A stretch of 63,946 nt of DNA from Chara braunii (Eukaryota > Plantae > Charophyceae), in the NCBI GenBank assembly GCA_003427395.1, contig BFEA01000013.1:6559038-6622983 (forward strand), written 5' to 3'. This document shows positions 1 through 41,607 of this stretch, in pieces. The position numbers and the translations under genes were made by a program. Position 1 is the stretch's first letter. Each line of letters opens with the position of its first letter. Under the pieces are notes generated by a model. That model saw only the letters and a program-made list of their open reading frames with translations. It ran no database searches and was not told where the DNA came from.

Positions 1-433
1 TGTTAGCGTTGATCAGAACACAACGATGTTATTAGGTTAGCAACCAGTCAGGTTTCAGAGCAGCAACCAGATCAGCAAGTAATCAGTCCAAGCAGCCAGG
101 ATCAAGTGTTCTGCCCAGTGGTAATCAGAAAGGCAATCAGATCAGTAAGAAATTTTGCAATCAGTTCAGTAAGCAATTTTGCAATCAGTTAAGTAAACAA
201 TTTTGCAATCAGATCAACAATAGAATCTGCAATCGAATCGGTAGTCGGTTCGGCATACATATCATTAATTAATTCGGCAAGTGATTCAGTAGTCAGAAAC
301 TGCAGTTGGAAACGACAATCTGGAACAACTATTCGAAACAGCCATCAACCCAACAGTCTTTTCACACCTATATTGTCCAAAGGTCACCCGTCTTGGGTTG
401 GGTGAACTGATGTAGGGGGAGTTCGGTAAGGAT

Positions 434-688
434 ATGGAGGATAGCAACACAGTTAGAGTCTCCTGCTCTCTGTATCAGGACGCTGCAGAGACCTAGAGGG
501 AGAGTGCAGTTGAGGAATACAACCATCAGACTGCTATGATGATGGAACACGCACTGACCCTCGTGAGGAATCATACAAAAATCGAATACACATACTACTT
601 GCATGATAAGAATGACAGACTATGTGCCACCATAACTTCTGTGGGTACTATTGAGAAAGCAAGGAGGACTGTTAGCAACCACCAGTGA
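434..688 (+). pseudogene. LTR-borne small ORF (family B), TGG>TAG stop in this copy
   Basis: Copy of open ORF 19125-19379; weak similarity to 4038-4304. Confidence 0.45.
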
Positions 689-964
689 GCGTTTTGTCTC
701 TGAACAAGTACAACTCACTTATCCGGACAACCAACAATCTAATCAGCAGTCAATCATCAGCAATCAGTTATTATTAGTGATCAGTTTCCAGCTCAGTCTT
801 CAATATTAATTTTCAGCATTCAGTCTTCAGCATTAGTCTTCAACACTCAGTTCTCAGCTTTCAGTTGTCGGCATTCAACTTTCAACAAACAATTTTTTTT
901 GCAATCAATTCAGGTAACCAGCTCTCCAGGACCATCTGGTCAGTTTGCACTGCCAAGAGTACTG

Positions 965-1627
965 ATGAGCACAGTTCAGTCTACGCCGGTCAGTGAGTCA
1001 GTGCTGGCCAACCTCAACCGGTTTTCATGCAAAGAGGCATTCCGTTATCGGTATGTTAGTGCCATTGGTTTAAGACAGGGAGATCTGTCAATCTTCGTTG
1101 TCCAGACCAGTTTTGCTGATGACACTATCCACGATCTGAGGCCTTATCTGAAGAAGGGCAAGGAGACTCATGAACTTTTCGATCCAGTCTGGATCTCAGC
1201 CACCGAATACCTTGAGCAGAGAGAGAGGGAGCTCGATGAGAATGGCACTACGTTGATTCGCAGCTTCGGGCCAATGCTTTATACCGTCTATCCTAAGCCT
1301 CTAGTCCCTTTTCCTCTCACTGATGGCACGAGTTGGCTGGATGTGATTGGTTTGGCAAAAAGGTACATCTCTCTGGCGGTGATCGACGTTGAGGCGCTGA
1401 CCGAGCCCACCGAGTATCCCTACCTGAAACGAGGAATCTTTTCTGTGAACGTACTGCCTACTTTGTGGGAGGAGTTTTGCTCCATGGTTAACTACCGTGT
1501 CATTTGCTTCGGATGGTCGTGCTCAGAGCTTGTTGGCTACAGGTGGCATTTCGTCACGAAGCCTCAGTCTCAGATTGTACGTGGGCGTGGGTCTCGACAC
1601 CAGAGAAGATCAGTGAAAAGAGATTGA
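965..1627 (+). CDS. LTR-encoded protein of unknown function (family A, F-x6-DLRxY motif)
   Basis: 220-aa ORF from ATG 965, also open in the 3' LTR copy; paralogous to three ORFs in the leader. Confidence 0.7.
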   Translation: MSTVQSTPVSESVLANLNRFSCKEAFRYRYVSAIGLRQGDLSIFVVQTSFADDTIHDLRPYLKKGKETHELFDPVWISATEYLEQRERELDENGTTLIRSFGPMLYTVYPKPLVPFPLTDGTSWLDVIGLAKRYISLAVIDVEALTEPTEYPYLKRGIFSVNVLPTLWEEFCSMVNYRVICFGWSCSELVGYRWHFVTKPQSQIVRGRGSRHQRRSVKRD

Positions 1628-2417
1628 GAGAGACTAACCAGAGGGATGAGTGAGGACTCTTGAGAGGTGCTGACCATGCTTGTTTATGTGTACTTTCTGA
1701 GATTATTATGAGTTCTCATTTTTCCCTCATTCATTTGATTTTGCCTTTGCTCGAGTCAGTCGGTCTTGCTTCTTGCATTGTTCTTATCTGAAGATTGCTA
1801 TCGTGGATGATTCTATCACAGTTCTCAAAATCAGATTGACATAATTTATGCATGCATAGCACCCCATAATTTTATGATTATTATTTGCATAATTTTTCGC
1901 TGTTCTGAATCAAAATAAAAGATTCCTAAGACCGGGGACCGGCGAGGACCGTAATTGAAGGGTCTCGCTCGAAGTCGGACGCACACAAAAGGAAGGGATT
2001 TGCATTATTTAATTTATTTTATTTACTACAATCACATACAAAATCCTGCTTGACAGCCTGTTAGCTTTCCGGTCGGCCGAAGTGCCTCGGCTGGAAAAAA
2101 TGCGACAAAAAAGATTTTTGTGTCCGGAACGAGCCTGGGTCATCATCATCTTTGAACTTTGATTAAGACGTGAGAACTGTTGACATTTCTGTGAGCTTCA
2201 TGTTAATTTTGTTATTGTCGATTGAGTTTCTATTCTCTTGAGAATTACGACTGCTAACTGTGATTTATTTCTTCCTTGTGTGAGGTACCACACCGGATCG
2301 GGAAAGGAGATTGATATTATTGACTGGAGAGAATCGAACTTGACACCAGGTATGACCAATTATCGTCCAACACACTGAAAGGAATTGAAAGGAAGAGAGT
2401 GAGACGGATCGAGACAA

Positions 2418-2831
2418 ATGTTGGTCGACGGTCTTCTGAAAGAATTATCTAAATTTACTACAAGAGGAATATTTCCTTACAGATATGAGGTTTATTGGAG
2501 CTATGACTCTTGTGGCTCAACCATCTGCGTAGTGCTGACTCACTTCTTGGAGGGAGATATCTATGATATCCGCCCCTATGTCAAGGAAGAAGGCAGTAAT
2601 GATGGTGAAAATTTTAATTGGTTATAGGAGATCGTGATCCAATTTATCTATGATGAAAAGACAGACCTCATCAAGCAAAAGAGGAAAGTGGAATGGGGCA
2701 TAATGCCAGTAACATACAAGATTGTCCCAATCCCGCCTATACCTGACAGCTATTGTGATGGGACTAACTGACTGCTGATAATCAACATAGTATTGACAAG
2801 AGAAAAAAAGAACGGTGGTCATGAGAGCTGA
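2418..2831 (+). pseudogene. Family A paralog 2 (two in-frame stops)
   Basis: LSKFTTRGIFPYRY...FLEGDIYDIRPY...NWL*...PIPPIPDSYCDGTN*LLII aligns with LNRFSCKEAFRYRY...FADDTIHDLRPY...PKPLVPFPLTDGTSWLDVI. Confidence 0.75.
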
Positions 2832-2835
2832 ATAG

Positions 2836-3315
2836 ATTTCAGCAGAAGTAATCAGACAAAGAAGGTCAAATTTTGGCAGAGGTTCGGGTCCAAGTCAAGA
2901 GAAGATTGAATGTCTCCTAAGGTCACTAAATACTCTGAGCAAGAAAGAGGCATTTCCATATAAAGTTGTCGGGTATGAGATGGTCGAGAGCGGATGGGAG
3001 CAGGAACGATTATATGTATTGACTTTCTATTTCACAGATCTGAATGTGTATGATGTGAGAATCTATATTCCAAAAGAAAGAAGCTCTGATGCAGTGTATG
3101 GGAGATGCTGGGGATTTGCTGAAGAGGTAGTACTGAGAGAGAAAAAGAGAGTTGAGAGAGAGAACAAATGCTTCACTGGGTCGACTCGATTTATTGTCTT
3201 TGATGGATTTTCAGTCCCTCCCTTACCTGATATCAATCTATCTGAAAATAATTGGTATGCCATGATAAAGTTTGCATGGAAAGTAAAGAGAGTCCAAGAA
3301 AAATACTCTCAGTAG
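2836..3315 (+). pseudogene. Family A paralog 3
   Basis: LLRSLNTLSKKEAFPYK...FTDLNVYDVRIY...CWGFAEE...PPLPDINLSENNWYAMI; the upstream ATG at 2821 is followed by a stop. Confidence 0.75.
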
Positions 3316-3824
3316 CCAAGATACCTACTGTGAGGGGTATACTCTATGAGGTGATAGGGTATGGTAATCCTTTAATGATCCTGAGGTACGAGACTTGTGA
3401 GAGAGGACCCAAAAAATTTCGCATCCAAGTGGTCAAATTCTTGAGTACTGGCAACTTGGACGTACGGATTTATGTACCATCAGGCCTAGAAAAGGAAGGT
3501 GAGTACTTGAAGTGTTAGACATGTGCTTATATTAGTCTCATAAGAACCAAAGAGTGCCTTGAAAAGTTAAAGAGAAAAGTAAATTGGGGAAAAAAAGTAA
3601 GACAATTCGAGAGGCTCCCTGAGTTCTCAGTTGCTGAGGGATTTGAAGGCAGGAGGGATTGGATGCCTCTGTTAGAAGCTATTGCTGAGATTGGTAGAGC
3701 AAGAGAAAAAGACTCTACTGTGAGGATAAAATCCCTACTTTTGAGTACCTTTGAACACAGATTCGAGATCCCTAATTGTGTCGAACCTGAGATCTACCTT
3801 TCAGATGTTGCTTATGATGATTAG
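3252..3824 (+). pseudogene. Family A paralog 4 (one in-frame stop)
   Basis: VVKFLSTGNLDVRIYV...KC*TCA...KRKVNWG (paralog 2 has KRKVEWG)...RRDWMPLL. Confidence 0.7.
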
Positions 3825-4037
3825 CAATGTCCAGTTTGACTGAACAACTGACACTAGGAGTTGTGACAGCCTTTCTTAGATCGCATGAGAGATTCTGCTC
3901 TGAGAATTATCACTGACCAGACTGAGATAAGCTATCTGTTGAAAGTGGTGAAAGTAGAAACTATTGAGAGAGTACCATATCACACTTTTCAGGAACGGGT
4001 CTCTCTTGCAAGAATGATCAACAGTAGGCTGTAAACG

Positions 4038-4304
4038 ATGCAATTTGATAATGAGATTATAGACCAGACTCGATATTTTATGATTCGAGGTACTATAAAG
4101 GGGTATGACAGAAGACTGAGTAGGGATGATGAGAGAGAGTTGATTGAAGATTACATTGGAAGACTGAGAAGGATTGCACTGCCTTTGATCACTACCCAAT
4201 CTATTATTGCTTATACCGTATATGTACAGAACTCTCAAGGGGTAGAGCAGACAAGTGAAGAAAGAAACGAGTCTGTATCCCTTGCTAGAAGAGTGACAGA
4301 CTGA
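4038..4304 (+). CDS. Small ORF upstream of gag (family B)
   Basis: ELIEDY...ALPLITTQSIIAYTVYVQN resembles AVEEY...ALTLVRNHTKIEYTYYLHD of 19125-19379. Confidence 0.4.
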   Translation: MQFDNEIIDQTRYFMIRGTIKGYDRRLSRDDERELIEDYIGRLRRIALPLITTQSIIAYTVYVQNSQGVEQTSEERNESVSLARRVTD

Positions 4305-4366
4305 GGGGCAAAGAAGAAAAGGACAAGAGTGACAGAAAGAGAGAAGAGAATATCTGGGGAAAATGT

Positions 4367-5838
4367 ATGGTCAAGATGGCAGGACGAGGAAAGCCGAGTA
4401 CATTAGCAGGGACTAATGAAGAGGTCCTGGTTGGAGTTATACGGGAGTTGGTTGAGAGAGTTGATACCATCAAAGGAGGGTCAGACATTGCAAGAGCAAA
4501 GAGGTCAAATGAAAGAATTCCCTGCTTCAGAGGACCTCAGGTTAATGACTTTTTGGATGAGTATGAATTATTTGGGCTCAGTTATGGCTGGACAGATAAG
4601 CAACGGCTTAAGCACCTTCTATCTTATTGTGACACTGATTCGAGACTGGCAGTTCAGGAACTAATGGAAGTTGCTACCACCTGGGAAGAAGTCAAGGAGA
4701 GACTGAAAAAAGAATTTGGGAAAGATTCAGTTCCAACCACAACTAAGGACTTACTCAACATCAGAAGAGCTAAATATGACACTTTCAATGTTTTTCTTCA
4801 GATCTTCATCCGAACAGCAAGAAGAATTCCATATTTGGACGAAGCTCGGAGATGCCATATATTTTTGATAAATTTTACTGACACTAAAAGGCAAGCAGTT
4901 CTTAATCAAGCTCAACATTATCGTCTCAGATGAGATGAAATCGTCGCAATCATAAGAACTCTACCTACTTCTCCCATAAGAAATGGTCACTGGATCAGAT
5001 CAGTACTTTGGCCAAGGATTGGGAGACTGAGAATGGAATGAATAGAGGAAACAATCTGACTGCTGAGAATATTCTTCAAAAAGTGATGACTAACTTTATG
5101 CCTGCAAGGCCTGCAACGTATGCTGTGGATGACAGGGGAAAGAAAAAGGCTGAAAGTGAGGAAGATGACGACGATGATGATGACAACGAAAATCATGGTA
5201 AGAAGGGGGATTCGTCCATAACCAAAAGGAATGGGAAGAATGGTGATGGAGGAAACAGAGAGAAAAGAAAATATGATAAGCGTCCTAAGAGGAGTTTTGT
5301 CTGCTACTATTGCGGTGAACGAGGTCATACTACCACTTATTGCAAGCCTCTTGAGGAAGATGTAAGGAGTGGGGTGACAAAGAAAGATGCAATGGACCAT
5401 GTCTGTGATAGTTCATGGAATAAGTTGGATCCCAGACATCTGGTAGGTATGAAACTTCTTATACTTAAACATGATGAAAAGATGAAGATTAAGAAGAAGA
5501 GAAAGACTAATGTGAATGTTCATTTTCTCATTGAAGACTTGCCTAATGAGCTAGTAAAAAAAGCAAGTGACCCTTATACCACGATTGAACTGCCTCTGCA
5601 GTCCTTAACACTGACAGAATGTGAGCCTAGCGAGACATCAACAAGTGAGTCTTCATTGGGAGAGAACCCTACTTTTCAGAATCCTTCTGGATTAGTAGAG
5701 TCCTCTTCCAATGAAATGACTCATCTCCCGGCTAACATGATGTCATTCCATGATGATTTACCCCCAGAACTTATCATGGAACCCAGTGTCAGGGTTGGTG
5801 AAGTGAGGAACCATCAAACCCGTATGACACCTCAATGA
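4367..5838 (+). pseudogene. gag: Gag (capsid + CCHC zinc knuckle), disrupted
   Basis: IPCFRGPQVNDFLDEYE...W capsid-like motif; CYYCGERGHTTTYC knuckle; stop at 4933 and a frameshift. Confidence 0.9.
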
Positions 5839-5978
5839 TATAAGAAAATAAAAGAAAGAAGGTTGAGGAGTCACTTATTAACATCCTTGATGACCCTAAA
5901 CCGGAACGTTCACAGGAAAAGAATGAACAAGGGAGAAAGATAAAATTTATTCTCAAGAGTGATTTCGATGATGAGACT

Positions 5979-6524
5979 GTGATTTCTGATATAATTGCTA
6001 AGATGCTGGAAGAAACTGAAGTGACACTGTCTTTCAACGAAGCAATGACACTAGCACCCAAAATGACAGAAAAGTTGAAAATTTTAATTGAGAAGAAGAA
6101 AATGAAAGTTAATTATTTGGGGTCAATCTTTCCCAACCAAGTGAATAGATCACTACCAGGTTGCAAGATGAGATTTGCAACCATGGGTTGTGGGCATCTT
6201 ACAATTCGCATTAATCAGATGAAGATTCTAACCCTAGTAGATTCTGGGGCAGAGATGATACTTCTTTCACGAAGAACGATGGAAACATGTAATTTATCTA
6301 TTGACAGACCTGCACAAAATGTACTGAGTAATATTGCAGGAGAACTGTCCGTGGTTGGATTTATTGATAATTTGCCTATCAGGGTTGGGACAATGACTGT
6401 GGAGTTACTGGGTTTTGTGGTGCCAGATATGGATCATGACTGTATTTTGGGAACTCCATTCTTGCATAGGATGAAGGCAGTCCAATTTTTCAGTCATGAG
6501 GGGTCATCTTGGATCAGTCTATAG
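5979..6524 (+). pseudogene. pol: Retroviral-type aspartic protease
   Basis: LVDSGAE active site and ILGTPFL motif. Confidence 0.92.
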
Positions 6525-6923
6525 GATTCCGAGACTGCCCCAGAGCAGACTTTTATGGTCAGTACGAAAAATGACTTCAAGCACCAACTATCTACTAATT
6601 CGATCAGGAGGGAAGAATTTGCTGAAAGGATTAAGAAACTAAAGGAGGAAGGAAAACGAGAAGTAAAAGAAGAGATTTCAGTGGGAATCAATCAGGTTTC
6701 GAAAATGATAAAAGCCCTTGGTAAACTCGAGGATGAGAACGAACAAATTGAAGACTTCAAGAAAGCTGTAGAGACTGCTAAGGGAGGAAAGATGGAACTG
6801 AGATTTGCACCGACTCACCTTTTTTTAGGAAAATAGTCACTGGGTCAAAAAGAAAATATAAGCCTAAGGGGGTGAAGAAAAACCCAGTGGCAGTCTTGAT
6901 AGAAAAAAAATTATGATGAAGCC

Positions 6924-8480
6924 TTGGAAAAGGAAAGACAAATTATAAGAGCATTGAGGGAATCAGCAAAACTGGAGAATAGGGTCACCAAAGAGAGGTT
7001 TGACACAATGAAGATAGGCTCAGAACAGTTTATCCTGCCTAAAGAGAAAAAATATATCTTCAAAGTGTGTCAAAAATTCTCTGGTGCTTTCTCCTTTAAT
7101 GATGAAGAGAGAGGGCGGTTGGACATGGACATGATCAAGATGGCCAAGATCTGGACAGTTGATCATGTTCCATGGAATGATAGACCAACCAAGTATGCCC
7201 TAAAGGAAGAAGCGGAAGTAGCAAAGTACCTTAACAAGAAGATTGCATCTAATGTTGTTGAACCTGCTGATGAACCGTATGCTAACCACTGATTTTGTTT
7301 TTGGAAACTAGGGGGCGGACTAAGATGGATACAGAATCTTCAGAAGCTCAATTCTGTGACGGTACGTGATGCAGAGTCTTCCTAATGCTGATCTCCTCGC
7401 TGAATCCTTTGCTGGTCGATGTATTTATTCTCTAGTTGACCTGTATTCTGACTATGATCAGTTCCCTATTGATTCCACTAGCCGGCCAATGACTGCCATG
7501 CACACACCAAGGGGGTTTGTTCAGATGTGCGTGGTACCTCAGGGCTGGACTAACGGAGTGGCAGTGGTTCAAAGGGATATGATCAAAGTCATGCAGGATA
7601 TTTCTTCTGAAATAACCATTCCCTACATTGATGATAATCCTGTAAAAGGACCCTTGGTAAGTGATGAAACTTTGGTCGCAGGGGGAGTCGGAAAGTTTGT
7701 CTGAGGACATGCTGAAAGAGTAAAGACAGTCCTAGAGAGACTTCAGAAGTATAATCTGACTGCCAGTGGGTCAAAGTCCCTTCTCTTCCAACCAGAAGTG
7801 ATAATCTTGGGCTTCAGATGCTTCTCCAAAGGTAGGAGTCCAGATCCCAAGAAGATAGACAAGATCTTGAACTGGCCTCTGCCTCTCAAGAGAGTGACAG
7901 ACGTCAGGAGCTTCTTGAGAACCTGTGGATTCTGAAGAATTTTTATTTCTCATTTTGCTGCCCTTGCAAAACCTTTGAGGGAAATGGTAAGGCAAGGTGC
8001 TAATTTAGCATGGGATGATAAAAGACAAGCTGCAGCAGAAACGTTGCAAGAAAAACTAAGAGATGGTGGTGTAGTGCTGGGAGTGTCATATTATGATGAT
8101 GAGGAGACAAGACCTTTCATCATTGAGGCGGATGGAGGACCAGTTGCTCTGGGTGGAGTGCTTATTTAGAAAGATGAAAATGAGAGAGAAAGACCTCTGA
8201 GATTTGAGAGCAGAACCCTTAATTCTACTGAAAGATGTTACACCCAATTTAGGAAGGAGCTACTGTCAATCATCCATAGCCTCAGGTGTTTTAGGCACTG
8301 CGTCTTAGGAAAGAGATTCGTCTTGAGGACTGATGCATCTGCTGTGATAGGTGCCATTAAAAAACGCCAACAAGTAGATCCAACAGTTAGCAGATGGATC
8401 GCCTTCATCTGGACATATGATTTTAAGCTGAAAAAGATCCCCACTGAGAAGAACAGAGCGGATGGCTTAAGCCGGATTGA
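6924..8480 (+). pseudogene. pol: Reverse transcriptase and RNase H, disrupted
   Basis: DLYSDYDQ, PQGWTN and YIDD motifs. RNase H motifs: FIIEADGG, RPLRFESR, RTDA, NRADGLSR. Several stops and frameshifts. Confidence 0.95.
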
Positions 8481-8939
8481 GTGGCGAGAAGAAGAAGAAG
8501 ATGTGAATGGAACAATTGAAGAATTTGCCTATGTTGATAATTTCCTTAACGAAAAAGATGATGAGGATTATGAGGCACCATGCTCCTACAAGTGGAGTCT
8601 GTGGCCTGAAGAGAGAGACAGTTGGGGAGAAATCTCAAGTGCATACGTTTATGAATCGATTCTCGGGAAAGAAGAAGAAGATGAACCGAACGATTGGTAT
8701 GCAAGAGTTAATGCAGCAGCAGTGGTTGTTCATCACATTGGGGAAAGTTCAGGTTCAAAGGAAGAAGAAAAGAGTGAAAAGAAGAAGGAATATGTATTTT
8801 TTTTCTTTGAAGAATATGATGAAAATTATCAAGAGATTGGCAGGAAGATGGAAAGGGAGCAGCTAAAAGAATATTATTGTAAAGATTCAAGGAAGAAATT
8901 CAGATTAAAGAGAGTACATCTCTTTGTGGATGGTAAGGG

Positions 8940-10087
8940 AGGCTTACCTCCACTAAGAGTGGTCTGTGGTAAAGAGAGGCAGTTAGAGATAATTGTTGCC
9001 CTACATGAGGGGGCCATTGGTGGCCACAGGGCTGCTGAGGCTACCTACTCCAAGTCTGCCAAACTCTACTTCTGGTCTGGCATGAGAGACATGATTTTCA
9101 AATACTGTAAATCATGTGTCTTAGGATGATTGAGCCCTTGTTCCCTACAATTCTGGTAGAGTCAGGTAGTAGAGTTCAGCTGGATCTCATCACTATGCCT
9201 CCAGGCAAGGGTGGGATGAGATACATATTAAACATTAGAAATAACTTCTCTGGATACGTTGAGGCAAAAACTCTGAAAAAGAAGACATCCGAGTAAGTGG
9301 CTGATTGGATAGAGGAAGTCTATCTCAGGTATCCTTTTATCAGAGAATTTGTCTCAGACAGAGGATCAGAATTCAGAAATGAGGTTGTCAGAAGAATTAC
9401 ACTCAGATTGGGTGTCAGAATTCGGTATGTGACTTCTTACCATCCTCAAGCGAATGGACCTGTTGAAAGAGACCACAAAACTCAGAAAGATTCATTGGCC
9501 AAGTGGTGTGAAGAGAAACTCAGTAACTGGCCAAAGGTGTTAAGAGCTGTTGTATATGCTGATAATATCACAGTCAAGAGAACTACTGGTTATGCACTTT
9601 TTATACTGTGGTATGACCGTTATGCTACGTTACCAATTGAGAGTATTGTCAAGACATGGTCAAGTCAAGAGAGTGACAGGGATTATTCTATTTCAGAACT
9701 CCTTCATATCATAATGAGGCAGGTATCTGAAGTTGATCAGGCAGTGATGGATGCATCAGAGAGAATGGCATCCAGTAGGCTATCAGATCAAGAGAGATGA
9801 AACAAGAAAAGGTATATAAGAAAAGAGAAATTGAAGATTGAAGATGTTGTTCTTCTGTTTGACAGTTCTCTTGAGACATGACTAAAAGATTGGAGCCCAG
9901 ATGGCTTGGTCCTTACAGAATCATATGAGAAGCAGAAAACAAGGTATATGAGATCTCGGAAATGGACGAATCCAGAGTACACGATATGGTCTCAGGGTCA
10001 AGACTTGGTAAGTTCATCTTCAGAGACCCTGACTTGATCCCTACAGTGACTCCAAAGAGAGGAAAGAGAAGTCAACCATCCAAGTAA
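8940..10087 (+). pseudogene. pol: Integrase (HHCC, DDE core, GPY), no chromodomain seen
   Basis: HEGAIGGH...CKSC; QLDL, SDRGSEF, YHPQANGPVER; WLGPYRI near 9900. Confidence 0.93.
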
Positions 10088-12195
10088 GAGAACGGTCAAA
10101 GAGGACTGAGAAAGAGCACAGTAAGACACTGAGACAGTGAGGCTCAGTTATCGGCAGACAATGATCATTCTTGCATAGTCAATTCAACATTTCAGTTTCA
10201 GTATTTCAGTTTCAGTACTTCAGTTTCAGCATCTCAGTTTCAATGTACCAGTTTTCAGCAAGTCATTTTATTATCTATTTCAGCAAGCAACTAAGTTAAT
10301 GAGACTATATCTTTGATGCATTGCTGCAGTCGTTCCATGAGTGTTAAGTCATGAGAGTGGGGAGTAACTGTGAGTACAGTTCTGGGAGCATTGACACAGT
10401 GTTAAGAGCTGTGAAACCCATGGCTGTGGCACGTCAAATGATATAAGCAGTTTTATTCTTATCACAAAGAGAAAGCATGATGGGCATAAAGAAGTTCAGT
10501 TCTGTCTGATTGAAAGTTATCAGCAGAAGGACTTCGTGTCTCTAACTAAGTTGTCAATCCAAGAGATTCGGATGAGGGCATGCATAAAGAAGTTCAACTT
10601 TACTTGAGTGAGGGTAGTAAGTAGAGGGACTTCGTGCTTCTTGGTTAAGGACCTGTTTTTACTCAGATGAGGGAAGGGACCTCTCTTAGATCAGAGTTTC
10701 AGTATTTCCTTGAGACTGACTGGACGTCTCTTGGAAAAATAAATCCCAGTTGAGGGAAGAAACCTCTCTGGGGCTAACACAAAGTTTTTGCTTGTGACTG
10801 AAGGGAGGTCTCTTGCAAACTCTTAGTGTTGGCTAGCATGTTATTGTTCAAGTGTCTCTTGAGACTGACGGGACGTCTCTTGAGAGATGTTTGTTCTGTT
10901 ATGGGACGTGGGCAGTCTGCTTGTGGGGTTATGATATGTTTGCCTGACTGTCTGTGTCTGGGGTTTTCTTCTCTAACCTAAAAATGCGTTGATTGTCGGG
11001 GTCAGCCAGAGTCTTACCGCAGTAGGTTGCAATCTGGTGGGGTCAGCGGGTCCCCGACGCGAGTGTCGAATTCCATAGTCAGCTGAGGCTAAGACTCCGG
11101 GGGTCTGGCCTATGAGGTTGAAAGGGGTCAGCTGGAACCCTACCGCAGTCAGAGGATGCAATCCAGTGAGGTTAGCCAGAGCCTGGAACTATGGTTAGAC
11201 CGGGTCCTACGTTCAAAAATCTGGGCGGGGTAGCCAGCGCCCTTGGCCAAAAACTGGTAGGTGAGTCAGTCCCTCACCGCAGTGGTCAAATCCGGGTTCG
11301 GGACAGTTTGACTGACGGGACGTCTACTGTCATAGAGTGACCAGACCCGCTATAGTCTGGGTGTCCTGGCGAGAGTGCCAAAGGGCTGTCATACTCGAGT
11401 AGTGGGTATGATTGGTCCTGGCATGGAGGCAAGTCAAAAGGGCTATCAAGACAAATGGTCTGACTAGTCCTAGCCTGAGGCGGGCCGAATGAGGTATGTC
11501 AGACTAACGGGACGTCGGACATTCCTGGCCAGTGGTAGACCGAAACCAAGGTAATCAATAAATCCTGGGTATGAAGAGCTGTTATGTATTAATTGTTATT
11601 TGTTATTTATTATTTTATTTATGGGTTTTATTTTAATTTATTGATGCTTGGCTGCTGGTTGTCAGAGGGTCTGCTTGGTGGGATATGGTTGTTGTCTGTG
11701 GGACTTGCTGGTTTTGCAAGTACGCAAATACTTATTTGAAGTTCCCAGACCAGGGAAAAGAAAGAGGGTTTGGTATCCCCTCCCTTTTGTCTGAGAAGTT
11801 GAGAAGACGCCTCACTTGGACCAGAGAAAGAAAACAAGGGTTTGGTATCTCCATCAAGTGAGGAGCTGAGAAGATGTTTCTCAAACTGGAGAACAGAAAA
11901 GAGGGTTTGGTACACCCTATTTCCAGCATGGCAGATAGAGTGAATACCCCCCGTTATTGTGGTCGTTCCTGGCATAGATGCCTGATCAAGAACTAAGGTA
12001 ACCTCCATGAGAAGGACCAACAGTTGAACAAGTCGAACAAGAAGACAAAATCCTTCTTAAAATTTTATTGGGTGGCCGACAAGCGACCTGGTTTACGAGG
12101 AACCGATGTCCCTGGCCCAAGGGAGGCAAACTCTCAGGCCTGGGACGCTATGAAGTGGATGGGAATGAGAATTTTTTGTGAGCCAGAAATCGGAT

Positions 12196-12660
12196 TTAAA
12201 AGGCTGAGAAGAAGCCGCGTTTATATAGGACATAAAAGACAACCATAAGTTCAAGCTGGAAAAAGAAGAGAAGGAAGAAAATGTTGAAGAGAACACAGTG
12301 ACTGGGGTGATGAGGAGATGAGGCAGTGCATGGAACAGCAGGAGGCGGAGCGGGCACTATAGCCTTGCTTACGGCAGGGGTGGAAGGAGCTCTTGGGATA
12401 TAAGGAGGGGAAGAAGCACTTTGCGCGCCGTAGCGCGCGTCAAATCTCTTACGAAGGAACTCCATCCTGTCAGGGGATGGAGTCCTTTCATACCACTCTG
12501 CTAATGGATAACGGGGGTATGATTTTGGATGGTCATAGCCTCGTGGCTCATCCTCCTCCTCAGAACTGTAATCACGCCGCGCCCGAGCCGGCGGTTCGTC
12601 TTTAGCCTTCCCTGCTCTTCCTCCCCTTCCTCTACCCTGACCGCGGCGTGCCTCAGGCAT
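12196..12660 (-). CDS. Antisense ORF in 3' internal region, unknown function
   Basis: 154-aa ATG ORF (RGG-rich N-terminus, acidic and Pro-rich parts) between integrase and the 3' LTR. Confidence 0.35.
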   Translation of the reverse strand: MPEARRGQGRGRGGRAGKAKDEPPARARRDYSSEEEDEPRGYDHPKSYPRYPLAEWYERTPSPDRMEFLRKRFDARYGAQSASSPPYIPRAPSTPAVSKAIVPAPPPAVPCTASSPHHPSHCVLFNIFFLLFFFQLELMVVFYVLYKRGFFSAF

Positions 12661-14788
12661 GGTGCACGAGAGGTGGGTCTAGCACCAAAGGCTACGACTG
12701 AGAAGGCTGTGCGAGCAAAGATTATGATGAAAGAGATGGATCAGGAAAAGCAGAAGTAGAAAAATACTGGAAAAAAAATAGGGAAAATAACTGCACTAGC
12801 TAAGGAGGACTACAACATGCTATGTGAAGCTTAGTGCAGAGAGAGATGGGTGGCGCAGAGAAGACAAAGGACCGAAGGTAGGAAAGAAAACTCCGCACTA
12901 AGAGAGGGGGCGAGTACTAGAAGAAGAAGTGAGTACCGAGGGAGAGAGTGAGCGCTAAGGAAACACAAAGAGACGAAATGGCGCAAAGTCGCCTTAAGAG
13001 TTTTGACGTAGGTCACAACAAGAATGAATGAAAGTGTTGGTAGTCACTGTTACTTTATACTCCCTGAGCAACTCGTTTTAACCCAGCCGGGACGCTGGGT
13101 CGGGGTTTGGTATTATGTCGGAGGGCACGGTGGCCGGCCCTCCTCCGTGTACCAAGTCCCTGCTTGGTACAGTCCCTCGCGTCGGTGCCTCGGCCTATAG
13201 ACGTGCCTTGGGATTTCGTTGCCGATTAATGCCCAGGCTGTGCTTCGGCTCAGACCAGTCCTGGTGGTTGTATCCCTAACAAAAGGGGTGCGCCACAGGA
13301 CTTCCATTGGTCCACGCAGGCTCGGCGCCCTGGTGTACAACAGAGCACAACCGATTTGTGGTCATGGTAGCCGCCGGGTTCGCCCTGGGACGCGAAAGCG
13401 AAGAACTGGCGCGGTCTTTTCTACTGCGCGCCGAGTGCCCCGTGGCCAAGTTATGGGTTAGGTGCGTGGAAATGACTTGCTGACGGGAAAGGAAAAGCTG
13501 AATGAGAGAGATAAAAGGGGAAAACAAAAATATAAAAAACAAAGAAAAGAAAGTAGAAAACCTGATCAGCACGTGGATCAGGACCGTTGCTTTAGTCCAG
13601 AATGATTCAGCGACGATCGCCTACTGCATCGTTTGAGTTTTCCCTTTTCTCTTATTATTACTGTTACTATTATTTTTATCATTATTAATTCACCGATTCT
13701 CAGATGTGATTTCCCCTATTGTCGGGATCCTGTCACTTCGCGGGGGAGGCCATCGGTCCTGTTTCCAAGNCGTGGTCGCCGTTAGTTTAGACTGAGCCTG
13801 CATGGGGCTTAAAGGACCGTCTGGTCCTAATGGTTGTGATCTGGGCCAGGTGCAGGGACGGGATAAAGGTAACCCGTGTGGATGATCCAACCACGCACTG
13901 GGGCCTAGTAGCTGAGTTTAGGGGTAGATACGACAAAGACTGAGAAAAGGGGAGGTAGGGAAAAAAAAAAAAAAGAGGAAAAGGGGCGAAGGTTGGTTTT
14001 AGTTTTGAGCGAGGACCTGTACCACTGTTCAGTCGGAGCTGCTGTGCAGGATGAAATCTGAAGCGCCTTATTNCTATTGTTATTATTATTATCATTACAA
14101 TCATTATTAATTCTTTTTTTTTGTTTTCCATTGGTCCATCGCTTCGCGAGAAGGCCAANGGTTCAAATTTCGAGTTCAGCGGTCCACAGCCTAAGTAGGC
14201 CGACCTCACGTATACCGTCTGTNGGCTGGCTCTGATTTGACGCCGTGAGGTAAGACCCCAAAAAGGAGGGCAAACCGCGGTCGCATCGGTAAGAGACTTA
14301 TCACCCACCCTGTGGAGGGTCATAAGTCCCCTCCTTTCCATCGGACACGGGCACCCAGCAGAGACAGTTCGCTGCTCTCTTTTGAGGTGAAAACCTGGGC
14401 GGTCGGGATCCCGTTATGGGACCACCACCTCGGAATAGTAGTCACGTCTCAACGAGACGAAGCGACAGGGACCGATGGCAGAAGGGCTGTGGATATCGAG
14501 GCCATAAGCTTCTTTTCTTTTCTTTTCTCTTCTTTTCTTGAGTGTTCTTTTTTTATAAAATCACAAGTTAAAATATATATATATATTATTTTTGTTTGCT
14601 TTCAAGTTTTTACTGAGCCGTGAAGCCTTTCGCTTAGAGCACACTGGGGTCATCGCCTGGAGCTTTATAAAACGAAGGTTATCCCTACTGCGCAGAAGCT
14701 TGATTCCTGGCACTCGGGGCTCAGCCTGGCTAGGTGCTGCGAGCAGGGATAGTGCGGACTGAGCATTGGCACAGACCGTTGAGAAAGA

Positions 14789-15016
14789 GTGGCTATGACA
14801 CTACATGGCTATAGGCCTGACTGTTGGCGACACACGGTACGCTGGGTTCCAATGTCGGATGAGGGCCCTCAGATCACTACGGTCCTGAACTACAATGGGG
14901 GAGAGGTAGTCCGACCAAAGGTCTGCATAGAAGGGGGGGGAGAGGAGGAGATGCGAGGTGACCAGAGGCTGCAGACTGCCATTTCCGAAGCGCGCGACAG
15001 GGAGGAACGGAGGTGA
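14789..15016 (+). pseudogene. LTR-borne ORF remnant conserved in the related LTR family
   Basis: LHGYRPDCWRHTVRW...EGPQITTVLNY versus LRGYRPRYMRYSWMW...KGTLVETILSY read on the minus strand at about 50800-50930. Confidence 0.55.
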
Positions 15017-16754
15017 AGACGAGACGGGGTGACCGTGGGCTTGAGGGTGTCGGTCATCTACCACGAGACCGAGTCATCAACTGGGACCGAGACAAGGGAG
15101 GAACAACACAACGAGANAGACTCTGGTGGGGAAAGCGAAATGAGTGAGGCAGACCGAGAGACGGATCTCAGNTCCTGGAACNGGCCTGGTGAGATCCANC
15201 ANCATCATCGAGCCGCAAACCGGGTNGAGGAGGGACCCGAGGCCAGCTCTCGACAACCGACGCCGAGGGGCCGCGGGAGAGGAGAGANGCAGAACAAAGG
15301 GAAAGGACGTGTGTGAGGCGTGGCATCGAAGGTTAGCGTTTTTGTTTTTTTCATTATGAGAAACGGGGTATNAGCTACGAGGCGGTTACATGCGTACGCG
15401 TGGCACAGTCGAAGTGTGTGTGAAGCTACTGAGAGGGGTTGAGATAGACAGCGGGGTCGAGGAGAGGTGATCGAGTAGTCAATGCGCNCGTGGCACGCTC
15501 GTGTGGGAGGAATGAAGCATCGGCGAGATGCACGAGTGATCAGNCAGCGAGAGAAAAGGATGCGCTCTCGAAATGCAAGACGCGCGGGCAAGAGGGTGGA
15601 CGAGACTGAACCCGAAATGGGGAGGCTGAGACAGGTAGCGAAGGGGGGCGAGTTTGCAAGGTGGTGACGACAACTGTTTTCTTGGGAGGCACTGTCTCGC
15701 CAACGAGCACTGGGCAACTCATGCAAGCTGAGCAAGGTTGATGTCAACACCAGCGTTGTGGACTGCTCCGACTTTCGTTCCTCTGGCAGTTAATACTTGT
15801 ACGAGCACGATGCACTCCTCGAGAGCTCTGCGCTGACTCGAAGAAGAAGAGGAGGGGGCGCGTGACGGTGACGCGTGGATTTGGTCTCNAGTAGCTCACT
15901 CCAGGGGAGAAGGAGGAGTGTGGAGAGAACATACATAGCCAATAGGCGAGCGCTTCTGGAAAAGGGGTACAATGAGAAGGCCAAAAGGGCGTAGTGGTTG
16001 ATGTTATAATTACTCGGCTTGGAATAACCAGGACTTCGTCACATAAGGGACCCAAGACGTCACTTCTAGGTAGTAAACGAGATGTTAGGGGAAGACTCGT
16101 GATGACCAGCGCGCTTTCCATGAAACGGTTCCCTCATGATGTTGTGGAAACAGACCTCCTCATTACTCATCGGAGCTTGTGTGATCTGCTCGACCAAGAA
16201 CCAGCTGTTGAGAGAGCCTCGTTTCTTTTGGAGACAATCTTACTCACCACTTATCTTGCTACCTCTGAGTGACCCTCAATTTGTGACGGGTACTGTTGTC
16301 AGAGGCTGTTGATGCGCTTCTTTGTGGCCGCTCAGTCTGGAAATTTTCAGATAAGATGGTGACTATTGCAAGATAATGTTTTTTGACTCATAAACTTCAA
16401 TTTTCTCCCCTTCTCTCTTATTTCAGTTAATTAAACCAATTGATCATTGTTAACCGATTACGTGTCATCTTGATAGGGTTAAGCTCGCAGTAGATTGCGA
16501 GAATAAGTGAACAAAAAGGGGGGGGAAGCCCCAACTCATAACAGTAGTTCGAGATGTGCAGGCTATGAAAAGAGTCCAATGTACGACTACTATCCTAAGG
16601 GATTTAGCAAGGTCGAAGTGGTTGGGTAATTTTGGTATTGACACTTGCCTATTGGGTGTAATCCCCTGCGTAGAGTGGCCTATCTGATCGTATGGAAAGG
16701 TTAAGAAAGACGAGCAGCCTTTGTATTCGTGGGTCCTATGCCATGTGTTCACAC

Positions 16755-17160
16755 CATGCGGCTGTCCCACGCGGCTACACCGTGCAGTTATGCCAAGTGA
16801 TTGCACTGTGTGACTGTGCCGTGCAACTGTGTTACGTGACCGCACCGTGTGGCTACATCGAGTGACTGCGCAATGTGCCTGCATTGCGTGATTGCTCAGT
16901 GTACCTGCAACGCGTGACTGCGCAATGTGCCTGCATTGCGTAATTGCTCAGTGTTCCTGCAACGCGTGACTGCGCAATGTGCCTGCATTGCGTGATTGCT
17001 CAGTGTTCCTGCAACGCGTGACTGCGCAGTGTGCCTGCATTGCGTGGCTGCATTCTGTGCTAGTATCGTGTGTCTGCACCGTGTGACTGCATCGTGCTTT
17101 TNCATCGTGAGNTTGCACTATGTGCCTGCACCGTGAGACTGCACCGGGTGACTGCACGGA
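16755..17160 (+). repeat. Tandem repeat inside LTR (52-bp unit built from ~13-bp subunits)
   Basis: GTGACTGCGCAATGTGCCTGCATTGCGTGATTGCTCAGTGT(A/T)CCTGCAACGC at 16862, 16914, 16966 and a partial copy at 17018. Confidence 0.9.
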
Positions 17161-19124
17161 TACGTGATAACGAAGGTTTGCANGTGCTCACCTGATTGAA
17201 TGGTTACCCATAATGGTGTGAGTTCGTTCGTGCCTTGAGATACACCGGGTGCGTGACTACAGCCCTACAGGTGCGTGTGTGTGTGGGTGAATGTTCGGCT
17301 GAATGCACTTNTTGGCCTGGTGGTTACTNNCAGGTNCTTGGTTGAATATTCTAGGCTTATTCCNCGCCAGAATGTCAAAAANGGAATGTGGAGATGATTT
17401 CTATTGGCTNGTGCTCTGTGCTTTGACTTTGATTAGATGGGGAAAAGAAAGGCAGCTCTAAGAAAAATCTTCTATGTTCTTGCAAAGTTCCTACTTGATG
17501 GTGACTAAGAGTCTACTTAGCAAAGATAAGACGAGATTTAATTCGGAGAAAAGTTGTCTGTATTACCCGTCACTACCAACGTGGCCTTGATTATACCGCG
17601 ATAATGCAACTAGCAAGTCCCTACGAAGTGAAGGATCATCAACTGACCCTTATAAGTAAGAATCATTAGTGAGGAGTGGCCCGAAGGCCCTAACTACGGG
17701 TTACGACAGACGCTATTACCACCGCATTAAGGAAGTAAGCAACTCGGTAGAANTGCANATAAGAGACGAGNGANANTAGGTNGCTTCAACNNACGGGACA
17801 GTCCNTTTAAACACATTAATCNCAGGCCTGGGAAGGAACGGGTCCAGTCAAGGGATGTGGGAAAACTGGGAGTGAGTCAACTCTCGAAAAGAGAATGCAG
17901 TATAATATAGCTCTCTGAGTTGTTGATTGGTCGTTTTGTGTTGGACGCCGCCATTCAGTCTTTATTAGGCCGTCCCCGACAGTCTGCCACTATTATTTGA
18001 GTAGGCCTGATTGCCAACAAAGTTCTATTCCATAGCCGGGTTCCAGCAAATAACTCTAAGAGAGCCACACTCCATAGTTCGAGTGGAGACTCACTAGGGG
18101 AAACATGAGCGACGCTGAGATATTGGTAGTCAAGGGCTCTATCTATCTGGATAAGCTTGAGGGTTGGGAAATAGGGGCTATCCAAGACATGGAATCGCAC
18201 AGACAGGAGCAGCGAAAACAAGCTGTCAAGATGGTCATGAGATAAAAATATATAGAATATGTGCTATATTTTTATAGTCACGATGGTAAACTACACAGCA
18301 CTGGTTCATCTCTGGAGACCGTGGAAACAACCAGGGCAAAACTCGATTGAGGCCAAAGGAGCCTGGGCTCTTTATCGGAAATCACAAGCCAGCAATATCC
18401 GAATAGCACTTAGTTTTCTCAGAACAGTGTTCAGCAATCAACCAGTGTACGAACTGCACAGTGCTAGCTCCCGGTTTGAGACGATCTAGTGAGCAAGAGT
18501 AAAGGTTGAACAACAAAAATTTACTAGAAAAACACTCAGATAACATTCGAGCGATGCACTCAAGACAATTAGAAGACGAACTCAGACAATCAGAAGACGG
18601 ACTTAGACAATGAGAAGGCGTATTCGGACAGTCAGAAAACGAACTCAGATGGAAACCAGATTTTGCGACACATGACCTTGGTACTCAGTATTGTTAGCGT
18701 TGATCAGAACACAACGATGTTATTAGGTTAGCAACCAGTCAGGTTTCAGAGCAGCAACCAGATCAGCAAGTAATCAGTCCAAGCAGCCAGGATCAAGTGT
18801 TCTGACCAGTGGTAATCGGAAAGGCAATCAGATCAGTAAGAAATTTTGCAATCAGTTTAGTAAGCAATTTTGCAATCAGTTAAGTAAACAATTTTGCAAT
18901 CAGATCAGCAATAGAATCTGCAATCGAATCGGTAGTCGGTTCGACATACATATCATTAATTAATTCAGCAAGTGATTCAGTAGTCCGAAACTGCAGTTGG
19001 AAACGACAATTTGGAACAACTATTCGAAACAGCCATCAACCCAACAGCCTTTTCACACCTATATTGTCCAAAGGTCACCCGTCTTGGGTTGGGTGAACTG
19101 ATGTAGGGGGAGTTCGGTAAGGAT

Positions 19125-19379
19125 ATGCAGGATAGCAACACTGTTAGAGTCTCCTGCTCTCTGTATCAGGACGCTGCAGAGACCTGGAGGGAGAGTGCAG
19201 TTGAGGAATACAACCAGCAGACTGCTATGATCATGGAACACGCACTGACCCTCGTGAGGAATCATACAAAAATCGAATACACATACTACTTGCATGATAA
19301 GAACGACAGGCTATGTGCCACCATAACTTCTGTGGGTACTATTGAGGAAGCAAGGAGGACTGTTAGCAGCCACCCGTGA
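19125..19379 (+). CDS. LTR-borne small ORF (family B)
   Basis: 84-aa ATG ORF with a probable paralog at 4038-4304. Confidence 0.45.
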   Translation: MQDSNTVRVSCSLYQDAAETWRESAVEEYNQQTAMIMEHALTLVRNHTKIEYTYYLHDKNDRLCATITSVGTIEEARRTVSSHP

Positions 19380-19660
19380 GCGTTTTGTCTCTGAACAAGT
19401 ACAACTCACTTATCCGGACAACCAACAATCATCTAATCAGCAGTCAATCATCAGCAATCAGTTATTATTAGTGATCAGTTTCCAGCAATCAGTCTTCAAC
19501 ATTAATTTTCAACATTCAGTCTTCAACGTTAGTCTTCAGCACTCAGTTTTCAGCATTCAGTTGTCGGCATTTAGCTTTCAACAAACAGCTTTTTTTGCAA
19601 TCAGTTCAGGTAACCAGCTCTCCATGACCATCTGGTCAGTTTGCACTGGCAAGAGTACTG

Positions 19661-20314
19661 ATGAGCACAGTTCAGTCTATGCCGGTCAGTGAGTCAGTGT
19701 TGGCCAACCTCAACCGGTTTTCATGCAAAGAGGCATTCCGTTATCGGTATGTTAGTGTCATTGGTTTAAGACAGGGAGATCTGTCAATCTTCATTGTCCA
19801 GACCAGTTTTGCTGATGGCACTATCCACGATCTGAGGCCTTACATGAAGAAGGGCAAGGAAACTCATGAACTTTTCGATCCAGTCTGGATCTCAGCCACC
19901 GAATACCTTGAGCAGAGAGAGAGGGAACTCGATGAGAATGGCACTGCGTTGATTCGCAGCTTCGGGCCGATGCTTTATACTGACTATCATAAGCGTCCAG
20001 TCCCTTCTCCTCTCACTGATGGCACGAGTTGGTTGGATGTGATTGGTTTGGCAAAGCGGTACATCTCTCCGGCGGTGATCGCGCTGACCGAGCCCACCGA
20101 GTATCCCTACCTCAGACGAGGAGTATTTTCAGTGGACGTACTGCCTACTTTGTGGGAGGAGTTTTGCTCCATGGTTAACTACCGCATCATGTGCCTCGGA
20201 TGGTCGTGCTCAGAGCTTGCTGGCTACAGGTGGCATTTCGTCACGAAACCTCAGTCTCAGATTGTACGTGGGCGTGGGTCTCGGCACCAGAGAAGATCAG
20301 TGAAAAGAGATTGA
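19661..20314 (+). CDS. LTR-encoded family A protein (3' LTR copy)
   Basis: 217-aa ORF; differs from 965-1627 by substitutions and an in-frame 9-bp indel. Confidence 0.7.
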   Translation: MSTVQSMPVSESVLANLNRFSCKEAFRYRYVSVIGLRQGDLSIFIVQTSFADGTIHDLRPYMKKGKETHELFDPVWISATEYLEQRERELDENGTALIRSFGPMLYTDYHKRPVPSPLTDGTSWLDVIGLAKRYISPAVIALTEPTEYPYLRRGVFSVDVLPTLWEEFCSMVNYRIMCLGWSCSELAGYRWHFVTKPQSQIVRGRGSRHQRRSVKRD

Positions 20315-20814
20315 GAGAGACTGACCAGAGGGATGAGTGAGGACTCTTGAGAGGTGTTGACCATGCTCGTTTATGTGTACTTTCTTAGATTATTACGAGT
20401 TCTCATTCTTCCCTCATTCATTTGCTTTTGCCTTTGCTCAAGTCAGTCGGTCTTGCTTCTTGTATTGTTCTTATCTGAAGATTGCTATCGTGGATGATTC
20501 TGTCACAGTTCTCAAAATCAGATTGACATAATTGATGCATGCATAGCACCCCATAATTTTATGATTATTATTTGCATAATTTTTCGCTGTTCTGAATCAA
20601 AATAAAAGATTTCTAAGACCGGGGACCGGCTAAGACCACAATTGAAGGGTCTCGTTGGAAGTCGGACGCACACAACAGGAAGGGATTTGTATTATTTAAT
20701 TTATTTTACTTACTGCAATCACATACAAAATCCTGCTTGACAGCCTGTTGGATTTTCGGTCGCCCGAAGTGGCTCGACTAGAAAAAGTGCGACAGCGTGC
20801 GCGCACGCGCGCCC

Positions 20815-28808: not shown

Positions 28809-29140
28809 TGTCGCATTGTTTGGAGTCGGGCCACTTCTGGCGACCAGAAAGCCAACAGGCTGTCACGCAGGATTTGGATGATGTTTGCAATAAAGAAAAT
28901 AAATAAATTAAAGCAAATCCCTTCCTATAGTGTGCGTCCGACTTCGAGCGAGACCCTGCAATTGCGGTCTTCGCCGATCCCTGGTCTTAGGAATCTTTTA
29001 TTTTGATTCGGAACAACAAATAATCATGCAAATAATAATCATAAAATTCTGGTATGTCATGCATGCATCAACTTTGCCAGTTTCCTAATTTGAGAACTGT
29101 GACAGGATCATCAGGGAACATGATCATCAAACAAAGGCAG
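28809..29140 (-). repeat. LTR 3' terminus homologous to about 1800-2107
   Basis: Reverse complement matches the LTR end, e.g. GTGCGTCCGACTTCGAGCGAGACCC and GGTCTTAGGAATCTTTTATTTTGATTC. Confidence 0.9.
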
Positions 29141-39286: not shown

Positions 39287-40380
39287 CTAACTTGTGAGGT
39301 TCATGCTCATCTCGTCTCGAGCCACTAACTTCTTTAGCCTCGAGCCTGACACCCAGTCTTTCCACGCCGTCTCATTCAACTGCTCAATCTGGTAGGCTCC
39401 GTGCTCACCACACCTGGTGACCCTGTACGGTCTCAACCACCTCTTGTCCAGCTTCCGCGACCACTGCTTCTCCAGGGATGAGTCGTATAGCAACACAATG
39501 TCTCCCACCTTAAGAGGTTCCTTCCTTACCCTCGCCATCTTATCCCACCTGAACTTGTCCTTGGTACGGCTGTCAGCCGTCCTACTGGCCACCTCCTCAA
39601 TCCTGTCCTCTACAGCGCCAATCTGACGTGCCCTTGAGTCAAGCAGTTCTTCAAACGTCAGATTAGTCTTGAGGTCCTGCCGCCTCCAGGTCTTTAGGAA
39701 ACTTTCGATAGGAAACGTTGCATGCCTGTCATACCATAGCGTGGCCGGTGCGTAGCCGGTGCTTCTTCGGACGGTGATATTATCCACGAAGAAAGCGACC
39801 CTTAGAAAATTCGACTACTGATTGGGTCTGTTATCGGTCGACTTAGCAAGAAGATTTGTGATGGTGTTATGCCCTCTTTCCACCGGTGCATTAGCTTGGG
39901 GGTGCGCTGCGGTAGTATACTCGGCGATTACCCCATACCTCTTCAGAAGTGTCTTCACTTCTGCACATGTGAATTCAGACCCTCTATCCATCACAAATCT
40001 GGAGACAAAGGGGTAACGCAGGTAATACTCTTCGATGCATCGGACTAGCGTCTCACCAGTCTTTGTGCGAATGGCCCTGCCATCCACAAATCCAGAGAGG
40101 TTGTCCCGTGCATCAAAGATAAAGTTATAACTCCTTATTCCCAGCGGCATTGCCAACAGATCCAGGTGCACGATCCCGCCAACTTCACGAACATATCTTG
40201 GGTGAAGCGGCTCCCTAGGTCTAAGAGAGGATCGGTCCTGGCATGGTACACAAGATTTACAATAATCATCGATCATCTGCCCTATGACATCTCAATAGTA
40301 CAGTTCATGTATCTTGAGGTAAGTCGTATCCGTGCTCTTGTGGCCTCCTGCCGTACCGTCATGTAGTGCCGCCATAACGT
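39287..40380 (-). pseudogene. pol: Integrase
   Basis: YCKSCVPC, VHLDL, MDRGSEF, HPQANAPVERGH, KLDKRWLRPY. Confidence 0.93.
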
Positions 40381-40384
40381 CAAT

Positions 40385-41422
40385 CTAGCGAGCGACGCCG
40401 CAGACTACTCTTCTGGGAGCCCTCTCTTTGCTTCTCATGAACAGATGGTCATCCCTTACTAGAAAACTTGGCCTCATCTTCAGAACTTTTGCGCAAGCGT
40501 CCCTTTCCCCCATCTCACACGACAGAAGCATTCCGAGTTCAAGGTATATTCCCTTATATTTCTCTGCTTGAAACGCTTCTTTAATCTCACATTCCTCAAA
40601 ATCATCATCTTCCCTCTCGTGGATCATGTTATCACCCTCTTCCTGATCTTGCACCGTATTCCTGACCACCTCTTCCTGAAGCTGCGCATTTGCCAGCAGG
40701 TACACCCCATCTACCACTTTCTCGTGCTTGCTCACCTGCAGCGCCCCATCCTCAATCGTGAGCAAGTCCTCATGTAGGTGGTACTTGCCTGCTAAAGCCA
40801 GCTCCATCATCCAATCCACACCTGGCGTTCCCCATGAGTCTTCTTCAACATAGGGCTTAAGGACTAGGTCTGGTCGTCGTACATGTCCTGGTGGTGCAAG
40901 CCACACAGGTCGCCCCAAAGTAACATAGTTACCTACGACCAATGACCAGGAGTTAATGTGAAGTCTCACATCCTCCTCACTGTCCAGGAATCCGTCAACT
41001 GGTGGAGTATCCTCGATCACTCCTTGGTGGTTCTTGTCCCAGTCGACTCGACACAGCCCGTCTGCTCTATGCTTGTTCCACGGAATTCGCTCCAACTCGA
41101 AGTCGAATATCCAGATGTATGTTAACCATCTAGCGATAGTTGGATATGAAGGAGCGAAGTTTTTGAGAGAACCAGCTAGAGCAGTTGGGTCCACTCTTAG
41201 TACAAACCTGCTGCCAAAGAAGTAGTTTCTGAAAATCCTCAAGCAGTGAAGAACAGTCAAGGTTTCACGCTTAAACTGAGAGTGGTTCCTCTCAGTTGTA
41301 TTAAGCGTTCGACTCTCAAACCTTAGTGGTCGTTCTTCCCCATTGAGGTCTTGCTGGATCAACACACCTCCTAAAGCAGTTGGCCTTGCGTCCGTTTCAA
41401 CAATGAAAGGTCTGGTCATCAC
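40385..41422 (-). pseudogene. pol: RNase H + acidic linker
   Basis: FIVETDA, RPLRFESR, LRVDP, HRADGL. Confidence 0.93.
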
Positions 41423-41607
41423 CGCCGCATGATCTTCAGACCTTCTATCACCGACTGTTGCTTATCTCCCCACTCCCAATCTTGGCCCTGACGCACAAGC
41501 TTTCGCAATTGCTCAGTTTTCGCCGCAAACCCCTTTATGAAGATCCTTCAAAACCCACACGTTACCAAGAAGCTCCTTACCTCCGTGATAGTCTCGAACG
41601 GGGTTGG

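Follow-up and report, generated by a model that had tools for sequence, protein, structure and literature searches.

A cassette of four diverged copies of one small domain in the LTR and leader of a Ty3/gypsy retrotransposon of Chara braunii

The DNA analysed here (the window) is a stretch of 63,946 nucleotides from Chara braunii. Its left part is occupied by a forward-strand LTR retrotransposon that can be classified as Ty3/gypsy, as TG...CA LTRs flank gag and a protease, reverse transcriptase (RT), RNase H and integrase. The 5' LTR (1 to 2107; 2107 bp, AATAAA at 1914) starts at the window edge and so may lack part of its U3. The gag gene (4367 to 5838, first Met at 4367) is broken and is recognized by Retrotrans_gag and a weak zinc knuckle (E-values: 6e-4 and 0.03-0.1, below the curated cut-offs). 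It is followed by pol (5844 to 10000), in which the Ty3/gypsy order of protease, RT, RNase H and integrase with a GPY-type end is preserved despite stops and frameshifts. For the RNase H-integrase frame, 20 relatives were returned, all of them proteins of Chara braunii (34-85% identity). The chromodomain that marks the chromovirus branch was not found after the integrase (all frames of 9700-14100 lack a Pfam match at E ≤ 0.01, the decay of this copy lowering the sensitivity of the search). Neither a TGG-type primer binding site after the 5' LTR end at 2107 nor a polypurine tract directly before 18692 was found; the left flank of the element falls outside the window. Positions 2114-2122 are complementary to LTR positions 575-583 (9 exact bases, near the chance level), a pairing that could possibly serve as a self-priming site.

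The 3' LTR (18692 to 20794) is 94.7% identical to the 5' LTR (K2P 0.048). Divergence between the two is higher over 800-2107 than over 1-800, and the differences within the ORF that they carry (ORF A, below) show a synonymous excess. This suggests that the two LTRs derive from different family members or templates, and the distance of 0.048 is for that reason unfit as a clean insertion age. Between pol and the 3' LTR is a region of approximately 8.5 kb (10300 to 18691) without Pfam matches. In the Chara gene models P0001 and P0017, the 14.8-15.3 kb segment is fused to ORF A or to gag/RNase H, and therefore at least part of this region belongs to the family. This segment, a decayed coding-like stretch (14765-15346, +) with a distant copy near 50700-50900 (-), is possibly a further accessory ORF. 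The region also contains a 26-bp tandem array (16835-17157, 10 copies) and a 21-bp TCAG-containing array (18558-18649).

Other traces of related elements are present in the window. A second Ty3/gypsy element (39300-43600, -) has a pol 44-54% identical to that of the first; the domain described below is absent from its surroundings in the window. An assembly gap lies at 46161-46603. An ARAGORN tRNA-Asn call within its pol, on the opposite strand (43027-43107, +), is probably spurious. A related LTR end fragment at 28809-29112 (-) is 83% identical to 1806-2107 and closes with the same terminal bases.

The element encodes four diverged copies of one small domain: one (A) inside the LTRs and three (B, C and D) ahead of gag, as the initial annotation had placed them. 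ORF A (965 to 1627; 220 aa) is intact and lies wholly inside the 5' LTR. The shared domain covers its residues 10-132 approximately, while the C-terminal part is unique and ends in an Arg-rich tail. The further copy reported at 19661 exists, but it is ORF A of the 3' LTR (19661 to 20314; 217 aa, intact, with one in-frame 9-nt gap relative to the 5' copy) rather than a separate member. ORF B (2418 to 2831) consists of the domain only and is broken by stops at 2625 and 2769. ORF C (2821 to 3315) has an Arg-rich N-terminus and a stop at 2833, followed by 159 open codons. ORF D (3276 to 3824), the most diverged paralog, carries a C-terminal extension and a stop at 3516. The starts first assigned to A and B (965 and 2418) hold; those of C and D likely move from 2836 to 2821 and from 3252 to 3276. 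The remaining gap up to gag is filled by an ORF remnant, E (3827 to 4304), which is made of two related halves (internal duplication score 63, reached by 0/2000 shuffles) and has no similarity to A-D and no Pfam match.

The leader ORFs are closely packed. ORF B ends at 2831, 8 nt past the ATG of C (2821); the first ATG of D (3276) is inside C; and an ATG at 3827, 2 nt after the stop of D, opens the E remnant, which runs to 4304 ahead of the gag Met. From its sequence, this arrangement resembles a polycistronic leader. In one DNA run, contigs (30,998 placed) span all of 1-10200 and cover B-D about as deeply as gag-pol, although depth is not a copy number; the cassette is therefore a regular part of a multi-copy family.

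That the four ORFs are homologous at the protein level, as first proposed, is confirmed by several tests. In pairwise local alignment, five of the six pairs exceed all 1000 shuffles (z: A-B 17.7, A-C 13.8, B-C 13.1, C-D 13.1, B-D 6.6), the A-D pair alone not being significant (z -0.2, 1000 shuffles). ORF D is nevertheless joined to the others by a profile built without it (51.9 bits; maximum of 500 shuffles 4.6), and leave-one-group-out profiles score 65, 97, 79 and 52 bits for A, B, C and D, respectively (500 shuffles each, at most 9.5). The similarity disappears in the two other frames, where each shifted frame contains 6-15 stops. At 12-25% protein identity, the paralog frames have been kept almost gap-free. 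The DNA is less completely diverged than had been thought: four of the six pairs still beat all 200 shuffles. Across the six frames of the window, F-x6-D-[ILV]-R-x-Y is found at five places (1112, 2544, 3031, 3438 and 19808; 0.07 expected by chance), exactly at the ORFs for which it was claimed, and its F, D, R and Y are invariant in 13/13 rows of the domain alignment. The hydrophobic residue said to precede the F is in fact S, H, Y or K. The N-terminal pattern L..[FL][ST].[KR]..F.Y is present in the three copies A, B and C. Only 3 of 10 branches are starred in a phylogenetic tree of the domain, which resolves just the A and C groups, and no duplication order is therefore claimed.

Relatives were sought with HMMER, the five window sequences being run against the full set of 1.84 billion representatives; 11 proteins were returned at E ≤ 0.001 and 7 at 1e-10. 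P0001, P0003 and P0005 are Chara gene models fused to RT fragments and appear chimeric. Four others are intact or near-intact small proteins of 121-161 aa, encoded on ENA contigs of 556-667 bp: P0002 is C-like, P0006 is B-like, and P0004 and P0007 represent a further type. ORF C is related to P0002 (57% identity, intact) and P0005 (69%), and the closest stored relative of ORF B is P0006 (38%). One of four weak matches, P0010, is a real relative (45.4 bits, leave-one-out). It is a Chara model with a weak match to a Mutator-like transposase (PF20700; E-value: 0.0016, below the cut-off) and may be chimeric. The other three (P0008, P0009 and P0011) were excluded as repeat-inflated noise (best domain ≤ 2.1 bits). 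Aside from the ENA-contig proteins, all true relatives that carry a name are from Chara. A word-based search with ORF A alone gave no match at 121-385 aa, the 13-row profile matched only P0001 and P0005 among 7995 longer proteins scored, the Atlas feature searches gave no usable match, and the viral contigs searched contained no locus. Metagenome contigs yielded one decayed LTR piece (L001). A Ulp1/C48 protease frame on that contig (L001:600-1150; E-value: 1e-21), approximately 1.5 kb upstream of the LTR piece, suggests that the piece was inserted into another transposon. The domain has no match in the family libraries searched, and the cassette was previously unassigned.

The cassette copies show signs of being kept by selection. 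For ORF D, the classification covers 40 variant rows out of 67, all taken from one contig set. Those private to this copy (share ≥ 0.9) comprise 4 synonymous and 17 other changes, compared to 11 synonymous and 8 other changes among variants common to part of the family (p 0.0085 against a transition-weighted expectation of 0.29; Fisher 0.02). With two two-allele sites moved to the private class, the synonymous fractions become 11/15 for shared and 4/23 for private variants (p 0.0005; Fisher 0.0009). The 5' and 3' LTR copies of ORF A differ at 15 synonymous and 19 non-synonymous positions (pN/pS 0.38), a signal with a p of 0.005 unweighted that weakens to 0.05 with the transition-weighted expectation. 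L001 compared to the 3' LTR copy of ORF A gives a dN/dS of 0.38 over 93 codons; the comparison with the 5' copy (dN/dS 0.53) was set aside because its alignment hits a frameshift. Identity by codon position between the paralogs (0.41/0.45/0.30) was discarded as evidence because codon-shuffled controls gave the same pattern (0.40/0.46/0.29), albeit with approximately 15 times more gaps than the real alignment. The stop at 2625 in B is not common to other copies, that at 2833 in C is absent from nearly all others, and that at 3516 in D is not common to most. Both B stops (2625 and 2769) fall in Trp columns, in agreement with the proposal that Trp codons had turned into stops. This proposal fails for the D stop, where the first base of the codon is different in other copies (92% of depth) and a former Trp therefore does not fit. 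The cassette is real and, by these signs, selected. The broken state of B, C and D in this copy and the lack of convincing expression would fit a passive load of non-functional relics left by old internal duplications. This reading is highly improbable and already largely refuted: gag-pol is equally broken, the frames are kept at low identity, the shared variants have a synonymous excess and intact relatives exist.

The expression data consist of three RNA runs with the same label (42, 2314 and 58 reads). These reads come from both strands, track the DNA depth and, among the splice joints listed from them, include none within the cassette; they cannot be told from DNA carry-over and provide no convincing expression. 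The CpG observed/expected ratio is 0.30-0.39 in B-D, in gag-pol and just after the integrase (0.32-0.39 over B-D and gag-pol), whereas ORF A, the LTR end and the leader have values of 0.75-0.93. This suggests that the family was methylated in the past and that its control region was protected, although the ratio is also near 0.78 over 10.7-18 kb and the rest of the window.

Candidate cis sites are found upstream of ORF A. The LTR segment at 1 to 964 is built of short tandem repeats (24-, 13/14- and 27-mers) rich in TCAG, which occurs 29 times on the forward and 3 times on the reverse strand, or 30 per kb as opposed to 3.3 per kb outside the element (approximately nine times). A second TCAG-rich tandem array lies just after the integrase (10150 to 10300); over 9901-10700, TCAG occurs 16 times on the forward and 4 times on the reverse strand, approximately six times the rate outside the element. 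TCAG is frequent in gag-pol as well (49 forward, 35 reverse). The arrays may be slippage products.

Plant Ty3/gypsy elements are known to carry extra ORFs, some of them 5' of gag, and the function of most is unknown (PMC6317226, PMC7264820, PMC11963269, PMC9289625, PMC6431247, PMC5408684). Ogre, Tat/Retand and Athila, which are plant non-chromovirus Ty3/gypsy elements, resemble the Chara element as these sources portray them: they are large, have long LTRs and a long tandem-repeat-bearing region between pol and the 3' LTR, and carry extra ORFs of unknown function that are kept in most copies (PMC6317226, PMC7264820, PMC11963269, PMC6431247). Unlike them, the Chara element has four paralogs and an unrelated fifth ORF, in sense orientation and before gag, with one paralog in the LTR. 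None of the five has a Pfam match to plant mobile, TRP28 or Athila ORF1 domains. All are shorter than 250 codons and would therefore have been missed by a plant extra-ORF survey that used a 250-codon limit. LTR-overlapping ORFs include HIV nef and MMTV sag. CERV of Cer1 is a retrotransposon accessory factor for RNA export (PMC10309623). The Chara ORFs are likewise small and presumably regulatory, as are these factors of expression or RNA export, and one is located in the LTR. However, no homology to CERV, nef or sag was found, and here a whole 220-codon ORF is inside the LTR and is accompanied by three leader paralogs.

A functional parallel may be VANC of the Mutator-like VANDAL elements, which binds short motifs accumulated by tandem repeat formation in non-coding regions (PMC5735166). 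The features in common are a transposon-encoded accessory protein, fast divergence and a short motif in the non-coding tandem repeats of the element; the TCAG arrays, as candidate targets, show such motif accumulation. A plant mobile domain common to Gypsy and MULE elements has also been reported (PMC5418596), and the Chara domain is similarly found both in a Gypsy element and in P0010, with its weak Mutator-like match. In contrast to both, the Chara proteins belong to a retrotransposon, form a small alpha/beta domain and come as four paralogs. The DUF1985, DUF287 and PMD profiles matched neither the 13 members at E ≤ 10 nor the full ORF A. In the titles and abstracts searched, in which subscription journals are thinly covered, neither the domain nor a Chara Gypsy lineage that carries it was found described, nor a paralogous cassette of which one member lies inside the LTR; an unnamed entry may exist.

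The predicted monomers (two models, pLDDT 74.6 and 83.9) consist of a helix, three strands, a helix and then short strands, and also carry extra N- and C-terminal elements. The proposed model for the cassette, to which a probability of approximately 0.4 is given, is as follows. A-D would be element-specific regulators that, by analogy with known systems, bind the element's own DNA or RNA and thereby promote its expression or shield it from silencing. Their overlapping start and stop codons suggest that they would be translated through reinitiation or leaky scanning on the genomic RNA. Binding would rely on the invariant F, D, R and Y, which sit on two adjacent strands of the predicted three-stranded sheet and together would make up the contact surface. 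On the example of VANC, which has tandem-repeat targets, the TCAG arrays of the LTR and of the stretch after the integrase, with their strand bias, are taken as putative targets. Divergence of the four copies could have widened their specificity, or updated it in an arms race with host silencing.

Structural searches allow other readings. Foldseek against the PDB and viral models gave nothing at E ≤ 0.001, and there was no significant match to a known DNA- or RNA-binding fold or to the VANC/PMD families. This and the uneven charge of the domains (pI 4.6-9.4, with A and B acidic) weigh against the proposed binding of nucleic acid. An unlikely alternative is that the domain is a protein-binding adaptor for host proteins, either gelsolin-like and actin-binding (so that particles would travel along actin cables in the giant cells of Chara) or Crl-like, linking to the transcription machinery. 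A dsRBD reading of the helix-three strand-helix order was rejected (Foldseek E-value: 0.36-0.38 at best).

The initial annotation had suggested a PC4 fold, and a related, quite unlikely reading is that of a degenerate PC4/PUR-type single-strand module, acting as homo- or heterodimers of A-D to chaperone ssDNA or RNA during reverse transcription. The spacing F-x6-D-x-R-x-Y is real in PC4-type chains; it is a feature in common with PC4/Sub1, PUR and Whirly, as is a predicted strand meander followed by a helix, and the models may fit PURA in part. However, PF02229 matched 0/13 members at E ≤ 10 (control T5 protein, E-value: 8e-8), hhalign of the family to the T5 protein gave 0.2%, and the G-[IFLV]-[ST] motif that should follow the spacing is present in 0/13 rows. 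PC4/Sub1 chains do not appear among the structural matches listed, though they may rank lower. The PC4-like fold (PC4/PUR/Whirly) is defined by four strands and then a helix per repeat (PMC7549692); the predicted monomers have three strands before the helix, with an extra helix and strands. Nor is the domain consistently basic (pI 4.6-9.4, with A and B acidic). It should not be filed as PC4; by function, a sheet-faced nucleic-acid binder is possible. The initial interpretation is partly supported: the coding accessory cassette is upheld, and the PC4 fold is not supported.

A further, improbable reading is that one half of an EEP (DNase I/APE-like) nuclease, such as a LINE endonuclease, was captured and, being catalytically dead, was reused for binding as this domain. 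The Atlas model that bears on this has a pLDDT of 0.56 with all rows under the naming bar, Foldseek E-values are 0.19 or worse, no Pfam EEP match was obtained, and EEP chains are not in the best 50 rows of a wide structural search. The invariant D and R also do not fit the corresponding EEP strand.

The model of element-specific regulators can be extended, although this extension is unlikely: a Chara transposon-specific domain, common to Ty3/gypsy and Mutator-like elements, would constitute a sequence-specific anti-silencing system independent of VANC. The LTR copy would be supplied even by solo LTRs, and the three pre-gag copies would each recognize a different form of the TCAG arrays.

[quoted passage not shown] In this family, a compact and confidently modelled domain, four of whose residues are invariant, comes in four natural specificity variants per element. 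With its candidate cis sites and intact natural copies, the family opens retrotransposon-encoded counter-silencing or trans-activation to direct testing. A gene that is intact and lies entirely within the LTR would travel along with each solo LTR. The host belongs to an algal lineage that is closely related to land plants and has a large genome rich in Gypsy elements, and the system may bear on the growth of such genomes.
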